Assembly (NCBI GenBank): GCA_029261035.1
Contig: JAJDCD010000025.1
Coordinates: forward strand, 130,926 to 194,925
From: Candidatus Omnitrophota bacterium
Lineage (GTDB): Bacteria; Omnitrophota; Omnitrophia; Omnitrophales; JACROU01
Reading direction: 5' to 3'
DNA length: 64,000 nt
The translations under genes and the position numbers were made by a program. Positions 3,280 to 62,662 of the stretch are shown here, in pieces. How positions within the stretch are numbered: the stretch's first letter is position 1; the number at the start of each line of letters is the position of its first letter. The notes beneath the pieces are model-generated. The model saw only the letters and a list, made by a program, of their open reading frames with translations. It had not been told where the DNA came from and searched no databases.

Positions 3280-3352
3280 GATTGTTTTCCCGCCGCGAGT
3301 TCACAAAAATCGTATTGTATTTTTGTGCTGTCTGAGCGCCGGGAATACAATC
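3280..3352. repeat. R3 structured repeat (outer stem + GCGAGTTcacaaaa-loop-ttttgtgcTGTCTGAGC)
   Basis: gattgttttcccgccGCGAGTTcacaaaa atcgtattgtattt ttttgtgcTGTCTGAGCgccgggaatacaatc. Paralogues at 9258-9336, 27421-27492 and 62899-63000 have different loops and compensatory outer stems. Confidence 0.75.
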
Positions 3353-3375
3353 TTTTCCGACCCACCTACCTAAAA

Positions 3376-3910: not shown

Positions 3911-4360
3911 ATGGCACCTTACTTCATTAGGAGAGCAATTAATATGTTTAAAAACCCAACAATGCATTCTAAACCAGATTTCTGGCTTAACTTACCCGGA
4001 ATTGTAACAAAACTGGCTATTCTGCCCTTATCTATTTTTTTAGGCCTAATTCCCTCTATTATCTCCGGAGTACTTACAGCGTGCATTATATGTCTTTTTA
4101 GGCATATCTCTTACAAAGAATCTTTTTACAAGATTCTCAAAGGAATTTCAGAACCTACATACTTTTTTATGCTATCAGGAATTTTATGTATTTATTTCTA
4201 TATGAATACAAATTGGCAGGGGTTAATACTTATAGTAACAAACTTATTTATAGGAGAGCAGCTTTGGAATAAATTGCCTTTATGGCTTGAAAACTACTAT
4301 TGTGAGAAGGTAAATAAAACATCAAGTGTCGATCACATAAACCAAAAAATCAAAAGTTAA
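3911..4360 (+). CDS. Hypothetical membrane protein
   Basis: 149 aa with 3-4 predicted hydrophobic helices. No recognisable family. Confidence 0.3.
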   Translation: MAPYFIRRAINMFKNPTMHSKPDFWLNLPGIVTKLAILPLSIFLGLIPSIISGVLTACIICLFRHISYKESFYKILKGISEPTYFFMLSGILCIYFYMNTNWQGLILIVTNLFIGEQLWNKLPLWLENYYCEKVNKTSSVDHINQKIKS

Positions 4361-4842
4361 AAATCTTCATCATCCTCAAAACGTCCAGACAGTGTCGCCC
4401 CCCAAGTTCTACGGCCTCCATCAACAAGGTTGGGGTCCTCTTTGGTTGTTCCCCAATTAGAATTATCAACAGTTTCTGTTGTAGAGTAATCTTCCTTCTT
4501 ACGTCTTCCTGGTTTTTTGAAATCTCTTTCTGTCATTTTTTCTTCTAAAAGTTTCTCATCCACCTGCAAAGGTTGATCTACATTTCTCTTACGTCCTCTA
4601 GTTTTCTTTTCTGTAACTTCCTTTACCTTCACTTTATTAACAGATACAGTTTTCTTAACCCCTTTCGAAGAAGTTTTCTTCTTAGACAGAGAGGTCTTCT
4701 TTTCAACCTTTTTCTTAGCAATTTTTTTCTTGGAAGCCTTGGGTTTAACGACAGATCTCTTCTTAGAAGCCTTTTTCTTAACAGCTTTTTTCTTTCTTAC
4801 AGGGGAAGACTTTGCTTTTTTTTTCTTAGCCATAAAGATCAC
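4357..4842 (-). CDS. Lysine-rich basic (histone H1-like) protein with an acidic C-terminal tail
   Basis: 161 aa. The N-terminal ~70 aa are K-rich (KKKASKKRSVVKPKASKKKIAKKK). The C-terminus ends ...GRFEDDEDF. Confidence 0.5.
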   Translation of the reverse strand: MIFMAKKKKAKSSPVRKKKAVKKKASKKRSVVKPKASKKKIAKKKVEKKTSLSKKKTSSKGVKKTVSVNKVKVKEVTEKKTRGRKRNVDQPLQVDEKLLEEKMTERDFKKPGRRKKEDYSTTETVDNSNWGTTKEDPNLVDGGRRTWGATLSGRFEDDEDF

Positions 4843-4962: not shown

Positions 4963-5184
4963 TTATTTTCTTTTCTTTTTTGTAGCTTTTTTCTTTGCTT
5001 TTTTCTTAGCTGGCTTTTTCTTAGCAGCTTTTTTCTTTGCTTTCTTTTTTGCTTTTTTCTTAGCAGCCTTTTTCTTAGCAGCCTTTTTCTTTGCTTTTTT
5101 CTTAGCTGGTTTTCTTGCTACTTTTCTTTTCTTAGTAGCTTTTTTCTTACCAGCTTTTTTCTTTGCTTTTTTCTTTGCAGCCAT
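4963..5184 (-). CDS. Histone H1-like / Hc2-like lysine-alanine repeat DNA-binding protein
   Basis: 73 aa made almost entirely of AKKKA/KKAAK pentapeptide repeats. The DNA is a tandem ~15-nt repeat (gcttttttcttagca). Composition matches chlamydial Hc2 / AlgP-type histone-like proteins. Confidence 0.7.
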   Translation of the reverse strand: MAAKKKAKKKAGKKKATKKRKVARKPAKKKAKKKAAKKKAAKKKAKKKAKKKAAKKKPAKKKAKKKATKKKRK

Positions 5185-6136: not shown

Positions 6137-7435
6137 TCACCTCCCTGACCCAAATAAATTAATAACATCACTCCGAATCTTTTTATCCTTATCAAAGTCC
6201 AATAATGCTAATTTTACTGTAAACTCTCCAAACTGATCATTGATGAGATCCATTGCTTTTCTCAACCTTAACTGCTTTTCTGATTCTTTAAGAAACCAAA
6301 GATCCTCCCCCTTACAGGACAAATCGGAAACACTCACCCCTATCAAACGAATTCCTCTCTTAATAAAAGAATGCTCCTTCGTCTTTTTAGAAAAACCCAT
6401 AAATATCTCTAAAGACTCTTTATATATATCTTGTCCATCGTCCATAGCATAGTGACACTTCTTTTGCTTCCCCAAGCTCTTCTTATCACTAAATCGTATT
6501 TTTAAATGGATGGTTCTTCCTTGTAAATTTTGTTTCCGTAAACGTCTGCCTACTCTTTCTGAGAGCCAAAGCAAATACTTTCTAAACTCTCGATAATCAT
6601 AAGTATCTTCTAATAAAGTATACGAGTGTCCTACAGATTTAACTCTATCCTTTGCATCAGCCAAAGCCACAGGAGAATGATCTACCCCCATCCCCATACG
6701 TTTTAATACTGGTCCAATAATACCAAATCTCTCAAAGAGAATATCTTCCGGAAATTGAGCCAATTGACCGCAGGTACGAACACCTAACAAATGAAGCTTA
6801 TCTGTCATATTGGGACCAATACCACACAAGGCATTAATAGGCCTATCTTTTAAAAACCCTTCAACTTTAGGAGAATCAATACGCAAGAGTCCATTAGGCT
6901 TACAATGATCACTGACAAGCTTAGCTAAAAGTTTATTAGGAGCTATTCCAACAGACATCGTAATACCAAAACGCTTCTGAACCCAAGACCTCAAACTGTT
7001 ACCCAAATCTTCCACACAAGGAAAGAAAAACTTGTACGTATCTGTGACATCCATAAAAGCTTCATCAATCGAAAATATCTCTACCTGAGGGGTAAACTCA
7101 GACAACTTCTGAAAAATAATCTGTGAGGTCTCTACATATTTTTGACTATTCGCCGGAACCACAATAGCATGAGGGCATAGTTTTCTTGCCTGAACCAAGC
7201 TCATTCCAGACCCAACCCCATAAGGGCGCGCTTCATAACTCGCAGCACAAACAACCCCTCGAGTCATCGAATGCCCTCCTACCAAAACAGGTTTTCCTCT
7301 ATAATTTGGGTTGGCACTCTGTTCTACAGAAGCAAAAAAAGCATCCATATCGACATGAAATATGATTCTTTCTCTATTGGATATATTTGTTGTTGGAAGT
7401 TGATTGGTAAGATGAACAGATTTACGAGTAAGCAT
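6137..7435 (-). CDS. dinB: DNA polymerase IV (Y-family, DinB)
   Basis: IIFHVDMDAFFASVEQ...KPVLVGG, then the Y-family palm and little-finger pattern. It sits immediately downstream of lexA. Confidence 0.85.
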   Translation of the reverse strand: MLTRKSVHLTNQLPTTNISNRERIIFHVDMDAFFASVEQSANPNYRGKPVLVGGHSMTRGVVCAASYEARPYGVGSGMSLVQARKLCPHAIVVPANSQKYVETSQIIFQKLSEFTPQVEIFSIDEAFMDVTDTYKFFFPCVEDLGNSLRSWVQKRFGITMSVGIAPNKLLAKLVSDHCKPNGLLRIDSPKVEGFLKDRPINALCGIGPNMTDKLHLLGVRTCGQLAQFPEDILFERFGIIGPVLKRMGMGVDHSPVALADAKDRVKSVGHSYTLLEDTYDYREFRKYLLWLSERVGRRLRKQNLQGRTIHLKIRFSDKKSLGKQKKCHYAMDDGQDIYKESLEIFMGFSKKTKEHSFIKRGIRLIGVSVSDLSCKGEDLWFLKESEKQLRLRKAMDLINDQFGEFTVKLALLDFDKDKKIRSDVINLFGSGR

Positions 7436-7445
7436 TGAAACGTTA

Positions 7446-7530
7446 GAAGTCGGAAGTCAGAAGTCGGAAGTCAGAAAAGTTCTGATGTCCGCCTTCTGTC
7501 GTCTGACCTCTGCTTTCTGACCTCAGAGGA
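7446..7530. repeat. Heptad tandem/inverted repeat array (GAAGTCN x4 then TTCTGAC-like units)
   Basis: agaagtcggaagtcagaagtcggaagtcagaa | aag | ttctgatgtccgccttctgtcgtctgacctctgctttctgacc forms an imperfect long hairpin centred on cagaa-aag-ttctg. It lies in the 5' leader of dinB inside the lexA operon. Confidence 0.6.
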
Positions 7531-7536
7531 CAAGGG

Positions 7537-7806
7537 TTATGCAGAATAAGCCATTTGAAATTCTTCGTCATGAGCTTTCTCCAAAGACCAACCTAATGTC
7601 CTGGAGTTAAGACTGACTTCAAACACTCCAGAATCAGCAACGATCTGAAAGAAATAGTGAAGCGACTCCCCTTTCATTTCATGCCACTGGTAAGTTACGG
7701 ACTTCACATGATACTTACGACTCTTCCATATAAACCACACAGGTTGAGTAAGTCCTCTTCTAAAGATAGCTCCAACTTCTATTTTCTCTGCAATTTCTGT
7801 AATCAT
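7537..7806 (-). CDS. Hypothetical 89-aa protein in the lexA-dinB operon
   Basis: Good RBS (ggagagatt-ATG), co-directional with and between lexA and dinB. No recognisable domain. Confidence 0.45.
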   Translation of the reverse strand: MITEIAEKIEVGAIFRRGLTQPVWFIWKSRKYHVKSVTYQWHEMKGESLHYFFQIVADSGVFEVSLNSRTLGWSLEKAHDEEFQMAYSA

Positions 7807-7865
7807 AATCTCTCCATTTGTTTTCCGTTATTGGCTAAGAACCAAAAACATTATTTGTTAATTTT

Positions 7866-8459
7866 TTAGTATTTTCTAAACAAGCTTACGAGCTTACCTA
7901 AAACCTGAACATCCTTCACCTTGATATCTTCATACTTAAGATTTGCTGGTCTTAAAATAATATGGTTTTTCTTTTTATAAAATTGTTTGAGGGTCACCTC
8001 ATCCTCTATGAGAGCAGCCACAATATCTCCATCTTGAGCTGTTTTCTGTTCATGCATTACCACATAATCCCCATCGTGAATTCCTTTCTCAATCATACTG
8101 TCTCCCTGGACCTTAATAATATAGTTACCCGCTTGAGCAAATTCTTTAGGCAAAGGAATACTCTCTTTAATATCTTCAACAGCCAACATGGGACGCCCAG
8201 CTGCAATTTGTCCAAGCAAAGGAATTTCTATCACTTCCGGCTTTTCAGAAGTAAATCGAATAGAACGAGATTGGCGCGGTTCATGAGTAAAAACACCTCG
8301 GGTTCTTAAATGAGACAGGTGCTCATGAACCGTGCTGGCTGCAAGACCCAAAGCTTTGGCTATATCTCGAACCGAAGGAGAGTATCCTTGTTCGGAGATA
8401 AAGCCTTGAACATATTCAATAATGCGTTGTTGTGTAATTCCAGTATTTGCCTTTGTCAT
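7866..8459 (-). CDS. lexA: LexA repressor (S24 peptidase)
   Basis: N-terminal wHTH and a C-terminal S24 domain with AAG cleavage site, GDSM serine and LKQF lysine. The start is chosen at MTKANTG (8459), because the longer ORF start at 8483 falls inside the LexA box. Confidence 0.85.
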   Translation of the reverse strand: MTKANTGITQQRIIEYVQGFISEQGYSPSVRDIAKALGLAASTVHEHLSHLRTRGVFTHEPRQSRSIRFTSEKPEVIEIPLLGQIAAGRPMLAVEDIKESIPLPKEFAQAGNYIIKVQGDSMIEKGIHDGDYVVMHEQKTAQDGDIVAALIEDEVTLKQFYKKKNHIILRPANLKYEDIKVKDVQVLGKLVSLFRKY

Positions 8460-8476
8460 AACAGTTCGAAGTATAC

Positions 8477-8490
8477 CGAACATATGTTCG
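8477..8490. promoter_or_regulatory. LexA operator (Cheo-box type CGAACATATGTTCG)
   Basis: Perfect palindrome cgaacatatgttcg about 18 nt upstream of the lexA start. It matches the GAAC-N4-GTTC consensus used by Gram-positive-type LexA. Confidence 0.7.
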
Positions 8491-8671
8491 GTTTACAAGT
8501 ATTATTTTATCTTTTTTTTATAGCATCTTAAGTTGTTTCTATTAAATAAGTTACAGTTGTAGTAATTATAAGCAAATAAACAATTGAATTGTCGAAGTGT
8601 AGGAAGAAACAATAAAAGACAAAGATAATCATGACTATCTGTCCGCTGTCTTCTGATATAATGCCTCTCCT

Positions 8672-9175
8672 ATGAAACATTTAATACTCTCTTTTTTAAT
8701 TCTATGTTCGCTCGTCTTAGGAATCCCTTCTCTTCATTCCGAGGTTCCTCTTACCGTCAAATCCAAGAGCCCTGCTCCCCCATCCGAGTTTGTTGTTGAA
8801 GCCATTATTGACGTGAATATTTTAAAAAGCGCTGCAGGCCCTTCCATTCGAATGCTGGGAGTTGAAGCCACTCGCAATATTGAAGCTAAAAGAAAGGGGA
8901 TGGAATATTTAGAAACAAATATAAAGGGGAAAACATTCACATTAGAATATGACAAAAAAACGAAAGACCCTATGGGAAGGTTTTTAGCTTACGTCTATTT
9001 CGAAGATGGAAACATGCTAAACGAAGAAGTTCTCTGGAGAGGTTACGGATACGCTTCCAAAAAGTATCCCTGCAAATACATCTACAAATTCCGCCGCTAC
9101 GAAAACGACGCCAAAAGAAAAAACCACGGCCTCTGGAAAAAACTAACCAAACCAGGTGAGACAAAAGACAAATAA
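8672..9175 (+). CDS. Secreted thermonuclease (SNase-like) family protein
   Basis: Signal peptide, then SNase-fold motifs ...IRMLGVEA...GRFLAYVYFEDGNMLNEEVLWRGYGYA. Confidence 0.65.
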   Translation: MKHLILSFLILCSLVLGIPSLHSEVPLTVKSKSPAPPSEFVVEAIIDVNILKSAAGPSIRMLGVEATRNIEAKRKGMEYLETNIKGKTFTLEYDKKTKDPMGRFLAYVYFEDGNMLNEEVLWRGYGYASKKYPCKYIYKFRRYENDAKRKNHGLWKKLTKPGETKDK

Positions 9176-17263: not shown

Positions 17264-17406
17264 CTTCTTTTATCCCTTGCCCTATCGGGCTATCAGCAAT
17301 CAGCCTTCAGCGAAAATCAACTCATTGTCATTCTGATCCGCCTTTGGCGGAGAAGAATCTAAAACCATCTCTCTCAAGAGATCCTTCGTATGCACTCAGG
17401 ATGACA

Positions 17407-18366: not shown

Positions 18367-18390
18367 TAATTATCCTTTTTCAGCTCAACC

Positions 18391-18494
18391 AGCGGATAGC
18401 GCATAGCGTTTAGCGTATAGAAAAACAAAAAAACGCTTCATCTGTCTTTTTGACAAATGTCCCTATACGCTCCACGCTAAACGCTCTACGCTAT
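18391..18494. repeat. Inverted heptad array (AGCGNNT x4 / NNACGCT x4) forming a long hairpin in the nuoCD-nuoH spacer
   Basis: agcggatagcgcatagcgtttagcgtatag ...40-nt loop... ctatacgctccacgctaaacgctctacgctatcg. A related direct copy tagcgtttagcgtagagcgtatag is at 62637-62662. Confidence 0.6.
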
Positions 18495-62620: not shown

Positions 62621-62636
62621 TTTCTCCTTTCCTTAC

Positions 62637-62662
62637 TAGCGTTTAGCGTAGAGCGTATAGAC
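62637..62662. repeat. Heptad repeat tagcgttt-agcgtag-agcgtat (R4), paralogue of the nuoCD-nuoH spacer arms
   Basis: ctagcgtttagcgtagagcgtatag versus 18398-18420 gcatagcgtttagcgtatag. Confidence 0.55.

Follow-up and report, generated by a model that had tools for sequence, protein, structure and literature searches.

A probable LexA-regulated operon of the lexA-imuB-C-polY type from an Omnitrophota-like lineage

Results

Gene organization of the locus

We analyzed a window of 64,000 nt (the whole stretch of DNA under study, from contig JAJDCD010000025.1) and focus here on three co-directional genes of its minus strand: lexA, a small gene for an 89-aa protein, and a dinB-type gene for a Y-family DNA polymerase, preceded by a palindromic candidate LexA operator (Table 1). 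A first-pass annotation made by a model had described them as an SOS cassette of lexA, a small open reading frame (ORF) and dinB, and this organization was confirmed, with the dinB gene (7435-6137) lying beyond the segment that it had delimited. The lineage is probably Omnitrophota, judging by the polymerase, whose closest named match comes from a Candidatus Omnitrophica metagenome-assembled genome (62% identity), the next ones being from Zixibacteria, Thermodesulfobacteriota and Verrucomicrobia (44-47%).

Table 1. Features of the lexA, small-gene and polymerase locus, in coordinates of the window
Feature	Position	Strand	Basis
Y-family DNA polymerase, DinB / Pol IV type, 432 aa	6137..7435	minus	IMS, IMS_C and Pol IV NCBIfam models; alignment
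C-terminal extension of the polymerase	6140..6304	minus	DUF4113 match; alignment with RecA N-termini
Imperfect hairpin between the ImuB-C and polymerase genes; arms of tandem AGAAGTC (x4.6) and its complement	7440..7527		Repeat finders; RNA fold
Standalone ImuB-C family protein, 89 aa, GSU0042-like, DUF6504-related	7537..7806	minus	Profile searches; AlphaFold2 (AF2) model; literature (PMC3765255, PMC6511836)
lexA, 197 aa, winged helix-turn-helix (HTH) and S24 autopeptidase domains	7866..8459	minus	TIGR00498, PF01726, PF00717; start by alignment with relatives
Sigma-70-like promoter: TTGTAA (8498-8493), 17-nt spacer, TATACT (8475-8470)	8470..8498	minus	Promoter scan; predicted function
Predicted LexA operator, perfect 16-bp palindrome CCGAACATATGTTCGG, core GAAC-N4-GTTC, Cheo-box type	8476..8491		Sequence; conservation in L001, L025, L026 and L027

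The product of the first gene is, as far as its sequence can tell, a LexA repressor with an intact Ala-Gly cleavage site and Ser/Lys dyad. It scores far above the cut-off of the LexA model TIGR00498 (E 5.7e-57, 192.6 bits, cut-off 110.95) and matches PF01726 (3.1e-14) and PF00717 (2.4e-31), and in an alignment with seven other LexA proteins the cleavage site QIAAGRP (AAG from residue 86), the catalytic serine in GDSM (from residue 119) and the lysine in TLKQF (from residue 156) all fall into register. The longest ORF runs from 8483 to 7866, with its ATG inside the palindrome; the same alignment places the start at the ATG at 8459 (MTKANTG..., 197 aa), where the conserved N-terminus begins. This ATG lies 10 nt past the -10 hexamer TATACT and has no Shine-Dalgarno sequence (window 8459-8475), so that the lexA mRNA would have no leader or almost none. 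The corresponding spacing is 10 nt in L001 and 9 nt in L026 (relatives are referred to by locus number), and L027 has a 20-nt leader with AGGAAG. A scan of genome contigs with LexA gave only two distant loci (L015 and L016).

The 89-aa protein is a member of the standalone ImuB-C family

The small gene has GGAGAG 5 nt ahead of its ATG, in keeping with the good ribosome-binding site noted for it earlier. A word-based search with the 89-aa protein returned four close relatives only; at E<=1e-3 the full profile search yielded 587 cluster representatives, of which 123 remained at E<=1e-10, and their length is almost always 78-104 aa. In an alignment of 102 family sequences F15 is invariant, V11, P22, F25, W27, G46, W73 and L75 are nearly invariant (W73 being invariant across 75 sequences), and the GR(K)Y segment is basic. 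One candidate, P0121 (909 aa, four matching stretches), was dropped as a repetitive Ig-like protein with a chance match to WQYKK.

Membership of the 89-aa protein in the standalone ImuB-C family is firm. Using BLASTP, it matches the lexA-adjacent 84-aa ORF of the Geobacter anodireducens plasmid pSD with E 8e-18 and 34% identity, and the family hidden Markov model (HMM) matches the same ORF with E 1.2e-30; from its operon position we take this ORF to be the equivalent of GSU0042. The GSU0042-like family was defined by Aravind et al. 2013 (PMC3765255), who described a conserved C-terminal tryptophan and found DinB to be the commonest neighbor, frequently alongside LexA, SRAP or SplB-like radical SAM genes. 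Active Y-family polymerases that are paired with an ImuB-C of the standalone kind were reported by Timinskas and Venclovas 2019 (PMC6511836), and a 2026 survey (PMC12926913) counts PolY + ImuB-C as one of its association modules, gives ImuB-C a novel beta-barrel fold in its models and proposes it as a PolY- or DnaE2-binding regulatory subunit. The protein had been called uncharacterized and without a recognizable domain in the first-pass annotation; it is instead a standalone ImuB-C / DUF6504 family member, and the operon type to which its gene belongs is published (PMC3765255, PMC6511836, PMC12926913).

The kinship to DUF6504 would be invisible to a reader without search tools, because the protein's own Pfam match falls below threshold (E 0.0039, 17.9 bits, under the gathering cut-off of 24.2, with residues 6-45 alone matching). 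What carries the membership is the profile of the whole family: of its 102 aligned members, 60 match DUF6504, with a best E of 8.7e-9. Apart from this, Pfam and NCBIfam scans of the 89-aa protein gave only a weak match to DUF2794, and a literature search on DUF6504 found nothing. Structure prediction, which had been suggested for this protein, gave a confident all-beta AF2 model, with a predicted local distance difference test (pLDDT) score of 90 and six strands spanning residues 2-80. A Foldseek search with this model found no solved structure in the PDB below E 0.3, and the six-stranded model together with the lack of a PDB fold match agrees with the novel beta-barrel described in PMC12926913.

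The kinship of the standalone family to the domain fused to ImuB is supported but remote. For this comparison, ImuB proteins were found via searches of plasmids with E. coli DnaE. In four of six proteobacterial ImuB proteins, the final ~75 residues have a DUF6504 match (E 2.4e-4, 3.1e-4, 4.1e-3 and 0.06), in every case under the gathering score. Aligning the family with the six ImuB C-termini using hhalign gave E 3.9e-4 at a probability of 36% (13% with two sequences), with the P-x-x-F-x-W-x-G-R, W and F-x-V motifs in register, and a direct HMM search of the family against these C-termini was weak. Since our own matches are remote, the link rests partly on published profile searches, which reached E 1e-4 to 1e-5 (PMC3765255). 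On the Gluconobacter and Kozakia plasmids, a 77-81-aa ORF lies between imuB and dnaE2 (L031 2264-2497; L034 2259-2504); it has no DUF6504 match and no other convincing Pfam match. A Streptomyces DnaE2-like match had no informative neighbor gene.

The Y-family polymerase carries a RecA-N-terminus-like tail

The third gene encodes an apparently active polymerase, to judge from its conserved motifs. It matches IMS (9.6e-48), IMS_C (4.5e-22) and the Pol IV equivalog NF002677 (296.9 bits, cut-off 256), and its catalytic motifs DMDAFFASVE (residues 29-38) and SIDEAF (residues 122-127) align with those of E. coli DinB. We aligned it with ten homologues from ImuB-C loci and with E. coli DinB, leaving out the pSD polymerase. 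The catalytic motifs are kept in 11/11 of the ImuB-C-linked polymerases, and all 11 also have a C-terminal extension with a clamp motif and a RecA N-terminal (RecA-NT)-like tail, which E. coli DinB does not have.

In the window polymerase the extension can be divided in three: a clamp-binding-like DLWFL at aa 378-382, replaced by QxxLF in more distant members; a stretch resembling the RecA N-terminus (EKQLRLRKAMDLINDQFGEFTVKL, aa 386-409), which has K-Q, L, A and I-x-x-Q-F-G in common with it; and a clade-conserved INLFGSGR at the very C-terminus (aa 425-432). The I-x-x-Q-F-G element is common to the N-termini of E. coli and Deinococcus RecA and to the ten other ImuB-C-linked polymerases, and is not found in E. 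coli DinB. DUF4113 matches the isolated 67-aa tail with E 6.8e-4, under the gathering score. Catalytically intact palm/fingers and little-finger domains (IMS and IMS_C) together with such a tail are features of the 'GeoPolY-like' association group of PMC6511836. The N-terminal part of DUF4113 corresponds to the RecA-NT oligomerization motif and has been argued to bind RecA as in Pol V (PMC6511836), and the same motif in ImuB is reported to mediate ImuA' binding (PMC11791113).

The usual QxxLF clamp-binding motif is degenerate in the Omnitrophota-like clade, reading DLWFL or ELWLL (window 6290-6304). This clade has a conserved (N/D/Q)LFGSG(R/K) at the very C-terminus (window 6140-6163), which may be a clamp-binding motif that has moved there; in more distant ImuB-C-linked polymerases the C-terminal motif is SPAWRPxG instead. 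The start of the polymerase gene (window 7436-7460) encodes a conserved N-terminus, MLTRKS, and has no recognizable Shine-Dalgarno sequence, nor does that of L001.

The small gene is paired with tail-bearing polymerases in diverse genomes

Further contexts of the small gene were located in two ways, via the small protein or (L025, L026 and L027) via the polymerase only. A Y-family (IMS/IMS_C) polymerase gene lies downstream of the small gene in 10/10 independent contexts with a called gene, the polymerase gene of pSD being frameshifted. In an eleventh place, on the Pelobacter propionicus plasmid pPRO1 (L014 4001-4249), an uncalled ORF of the ImuB-C family has no adjacent polymerase gene and is followed by an IHF gene. 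Upstream, lexA is found in 7/10 contexts, and the pairing of the small gene with a tail-bearing polymerase is obligate among these ten contexts, with or without lexA.

The closest arrangement is that of L001, in which lexA, the small gene and dinB are accompanied by the SNase, glycosyltransferase and nuo synteny seen in the window. L009 also has the order lexA, small gene, dinB, and in L003 lexA and the small gene are followed by a radical SAM gene, two more genes and dinB. The plasmid pSD encodes lexA, the 84-aa ORF and a dinB split by the frameshift into two ORFs (L013 4249-5477). In L010 dinB and then an SRAP gene come after the small gene, in L012 the small gene is separated from the polymerase gene by a DUF72 gene and restriction-modification genes, and in the two Collierbacteria loci (L005 and L007) the small gene and polymerase gene come straight after a ribosomal protein operon, with no lexA. 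Finally, between lexA and the polymerase gene L025, L026 and L027 each encode a protein of 81-83 aa, which the family HMM recognizes with E ~1e-35; conservation of the 89-aa ORF in relatives, by which the first-pass annotation had proposed to judge it, is thus borne out.

The spacers of the lexA/imuB-C/polymerase operon are insertion hot spots in relatives, and the core order and strand are kept. The inserted genes include DUF1016/YhcG (before lexA), PF05635, a Gp49 + HTH (HigBA-like) pair, DUF72, a methylase and EcoO109I-type restriction pair, and the radical SAM gene, at L025 1625-3955, L026 2590-3996, L027 2949-3758, L012 414-2714 and L003 5339-8120.

A conserved palindrome lies within the lexA promoter

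The perfect palindrome reported earlier upstream of lexA (CGAACATATGTTCG, 8477-8490) is real and forms the inner part of the 16-mer CCGAACATATGTTCGG (8476-8491), which lies 17 nt from the ATG at 8459. A promoter scan found a TTGTAA/TATACT promoter-like site, whose 17-nt spacer the operator fills exactly. The Cheo box, the SOS operator of Gram-positive bacteria, has the consensus CGAACRNRYGTTYC; CGAACATATGTTCG fits it exactly and is palindromic, although the window copy occurs in a Gram-negative-type candidate phylum.

The motif GAAC-N4-GTTC is not significant by itself, as shuffles of the 64-kb window give 0.86 expected sites and one was seen. It stands above chance because it sits inside the promoter spacer, directly upstream of lexA, and because it is conserved in diverged relatives. 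L001 has TTGTAA, CCGAACATATGTTCGG and TATACT, L026 has TTGACA, CCGAACATTTGTTCGG and TATAAG, and L027 has TTGACA, CTGAACATTTGTTCAG and TATCCT, in each case with the box in the promoter spacer; in L025 the box heads the operon, upstream of the DUF1016 gene inserted before lexA. The flanks of the box have diverged among these four loci though the box itself is kept, and across the five loci the clade consensus is C[CT]GAACAT[AT]TGTTC[GA]G. The L027 variant CTGAACATTTGTTCAG fits the Myxococcus-type box too. Assignment to the GAAC-N4-GTTC (Cheo-type) operator class is thus supported by position in the promoter spacer and by conservation in four relatives, and LexA would presumably bind this candidate box.

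A motif search and a terminator scan found neither a second box nor a terminator-like site within the operon, and relaxed operator searches of the window gave hits no more often than chance, none of which looks real at three mismatches. More distant cassettes of the same architecture have other palindromes: CTACAAATGTAG-type in L003 and L009, and GGTTGACATGTGACAACC in pSD (L013, ~3335-3355). The palindrome ahead of lexA reads GGTCTACAAATGTAGACC in L003 (~4345-4365) and TAACAAATGTAG in L009 (~4165-4180). Such differences are as expected if every LexA lineage has its own motif.

Discussion

Taken together, these data make it quite likely that the three genes form a LexA-autoregulated SOS operon of the lexA-imuB-C-polY type, in which the small protein would be the polymerase's non-catalytic partner, probably with RecA as well. 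The identity of the operon and its predicted regulation are well supported, and the biochemical role that we propose for the small protein is drawn from its family and its genomic neighbors. In the undamaged cell, a LexA dimer would sit on the palindrome between the -35 and -10 elements and block RNA polymerase; repression by promoter occlusion is suggested because the operator lies inside the spacer. Upon DNA damage, RecA filaments would trigger self-cleavage of LexA at the Ala-Gly bond and the operon would be transcribed, so that further LexA would be made, setting the switch back, along with the 89-aa ImuB-C protein and the Y-family polymerase. ImuB-C would then most likely bind the polymerase as a small subunit, while the RecA-N-terminus-like motif of the tail would hold RecA, resulting in a Pol V-like multi-subunit translesion polymerase. 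Co-transcription of the genes, a physical complex of their products and an effect of the small protein on polymerase activity are presumed in this proposal.

The best precedent is the lexA-GSU0042(imuB-C)-dinB operon of Geobacter sulfurreducens, which likewise combines lexA, an ImuB-C protein of ~80 aa and an active Y-family polymerase with a RecA-NT-like tail. As in the Geobacter operons, LexA would control its own synthesis through a box that heads the operon, and the small proteins are clearly homologous. The LexA box of Geobacter has a consensus of the GGTT-N-ACC type (GGTTGACATGTGACAACC in pSD), whereas that of the window is GAAC-N4-GTTC. The window also differs in belonging to another phylum (probably Omnitrophota), in its longer spacers with a heptamer-periodic hairpin, and in a polymerase that ends in LFGSGR rather than in a SPAWRP-type tail. 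According to PMC6511836, which cites Jara et al. 2003, DNA damage induces the G. sulfurreducens lexA-imuB-C-polY operon, and its genes are transcribed together.

More remote parallels can be drawn with other LexA-controlled translesion systems. The ImuA-ImuB-DnaE2 mutasome of Pseudomonas, Caulobacter and Mycobacterium is LexA-controlled and damage-induced, has in ImuB a C-terminal beta-barrel to which the small protein appears to be remotely homologous, and includes a partner of Y-family fold with a RecA-NT motif. However, the Y-family protein of the window still has the catalytic residues, the barrel forms a polypeptide of its own, and there is no imuA or dnaE2 in the operon. E. coli Pol V (UmuD'2C-RecA-ATP) also has a LexA-repressed small-subunit gene upstream of a Y-family polymerase with a RecA-binding C-terminal tail, but the small protein of the window is neither an S24 peptidase nor an SH3-like UmuD, and nothing points to proteolytic activation. 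In the YqjX-YqjW and YolD-UvrX pairs of Bacillus subtilis, a small gene precedes a RecA-NT-tailed Y-family polymerase under a Cheo-box LexA operator; the window protein differs in having no YolD match, and the published models show a different fold. Indeed, Pfam gave no Peptidase_S24 or YolD (PF08863) match to the 89-aa protein at E<=1, which excludes membership in these families though not an analogous role.

Some points weigh against our main reading. The link to the fused ImuB domain is remote, given the Pfam matches to ImuB under the gathering score and the low hhalign probability. The role of standalone ImuB-C proteins is without biochemical proof even in Geobacter or Deinococcus (PMC8072749). 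Published AlphaFold models put ImuB-C in contact with DnaE2 and ImuA (PMC12926913), neither of which is encoded anywhere in the window. Lastly, expression of the small gene and of the polymerase gene may be uncoupled, since a stable hairpin separates them and the polymerase gene has no obvious Shine-Dalgarno sequence.

A different role for the small protein, which we consider unlikely, would be that of a DNA-binding damage sensor that detects lesions or stalled-fork structures and brings in the repair enzyme encoded by the neighboring gene, as first proposed by Aravind et al. 2013. Conserved basic positions (R16, R17, K28, R30 and K31 in window numbering) beside the conserved aromatics of the family would suit such a function, as would the reported occurrence of standalone ImuB-C beside Ku/ligase, SplB-type radical SAM and SRAP genes as well as polymerases (PMC3765255), in line with the radical SAM gene after the small gene in L003 and the SRAP gene after the pair in L010. 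However, the isoelectric point of the window protein (6.4; 5.4-9.2 across the family) is unlike that of a strongly basic DNA binder and, like the presence of a downstream polymerase gene in every context with a called gene, argues mildly against a sensor, and published AlphaFold models place the ImuB-C domain in protein-protein interfaces (PMC12926913). Among the roles offered by the first-pass annotation, that of a polymerase accessory factor is favored by our results, while the division inhibitor and the toxin, SOS-induced and unrelated to the polymerase, are not and seem to us hardly credible: their appeal lies in the size of the protein and its position in an SOS operon, whereas the protein is hydrophilic (grand average of hydropathy -0.26), finds no SulA, YneA-type or toxin-family match in Pfam or NCBIfam (PADLOC and toxin-specific libraries were not searched), stays paired with the polymerase where lexA is absent, e.g. 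in Collierbacteria, and appears to be remotely homologous to a domain fused to ImuB.

The extent of the operon could also be questioned, in that the operator might control lexA only, or lexA and the small gene, with the hairpin at 7440-7527 ending or processing the transcript and the polymerase being expressed independently. The 101-nt spacer does hold a stable hairpin (-37.1 kcal/mol, z -2.67), and the unrelated genes inserted in the spacers of relatives imply that tight translational coupling is not required. On the other hand, the hairpin is unlike an intrinsic terminator because it has no T-tract, and it was not called as a terminator; scans found no separate convincing promoter or second LexA box before the polymerase gene; all relatives preserve the order and strand of the genes; and the Geobacter operon is reported as a single transcript (PMC6511836). 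We therefore regard such an interruption as improbable and retain the three-gene SOS operon, with ImuB-C as a polymerase partner. The pairing holds across very distant phyla, including Collierbacteria that have no lexA at the locus, which strengthens the case for ImuB-C as a dedicated partner of tail-bearing polymerases.

Apart from its clade operator, the locus is a further case of a known operon type and an ordinary SOS operon, and with it the published lexA-imuB-C-polY module is now seen in a probable Omnitrophota lineage too. The role of the standalone ImuB-C protein is no easier to test here than in the cultivable Geobacter or Deinococcus. A literature search found no paper on LexA or SOS in Omnitrophota, and the consensus C[CT]GAACAT[AT]TGTTC[GA]G is for that reason a small new datum: it is the first candidate LexA operator for the clade and could be used for predicting its SOS regulon.

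Heptamer hairpins and other features of the window

The hairpin between the small gene and the polymerase gene, which ends a few nt upstream of the polymerase ATG, has a counterpart elsewhere in the window, at 18390-18492, with the units AGCGTAT and ATACGCT. The loops of the two are short (26 and 45 nt) and gene-free, and single heptamer arrays occur at 17288-17312 and 62636-62661. Similar arms were found in L025 (3553-3592 and 3955-3984), L026 (~2560-2590 and ~2950-2990) and L001 (5870-5985 and 6420-6444, of the GCGAATT type), the heptamer unit varying by copy (AGAAGTC, AGCGTAT, AACCGTG, AATGAAA, GCGAATT). In the operon spacers of L025 and L026, the loop between the heptamer-periodic inverted arms holds a gene for a PF05635 (23S rRNA intervening sequence) protein. 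As no PF05635 gene was found in the window, its hairpins look like gene-free copies of the PF05635-carrying element, and a literature search on heptamer repeats with intervening sequence proteins found no description of it. Speculatively, and with low confidence, the hairpin at 7440-7527 might be an 'empty' copy of an undescribed stem-loop element with tandem 7-nt arms, whose loop in related genomes carries the PF05635 four-helix-bundle gene and which would have landed repeatedly in SOS-operon spacers; once transcribed, its stem could conceivably serve as a site of RNase III-type processing or of insulation and in this way set how much ImuB-C is made relative to polymerase.

At 1870-1975 the window contains a dispersed repeat with paired hairpins (GTCATTCCCGAAATCTTTAGTCGGGAATCC ... 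GGATCCCCGACACAAACATTCGGGGATGAC), and a similar paired-hairpin repeat fills the imuB-C-to-dinB spacer of L001 (6280-6410), where it is overlain by a called 44-aa ORF. Divergent from lexA is an SNase-family (staphylococcal-nuclease-like) gene at 8672-9175 on the plus strand, whose product has a hydrophobic N-terminus and which is also found beside the cassette in L001 and L025; since the LexA box lies 180 nt from the start of this gene, co-regulation is not implied. The G+C content of the window is 34-40%, Rfam and tRNA scans of it found nothing, and its other genes, among them a fused nuoCD, ETF-QO, BcsB and BatA, are consistent with a free-living bacterium. Two minus-strand ORFs that lie a few kb away from the cassette encode Lys/Ala-rich, histone-H1-like proteins with AKKKA repeats (4357-4842, 161 aa, and 4963-5184, 73 aa).

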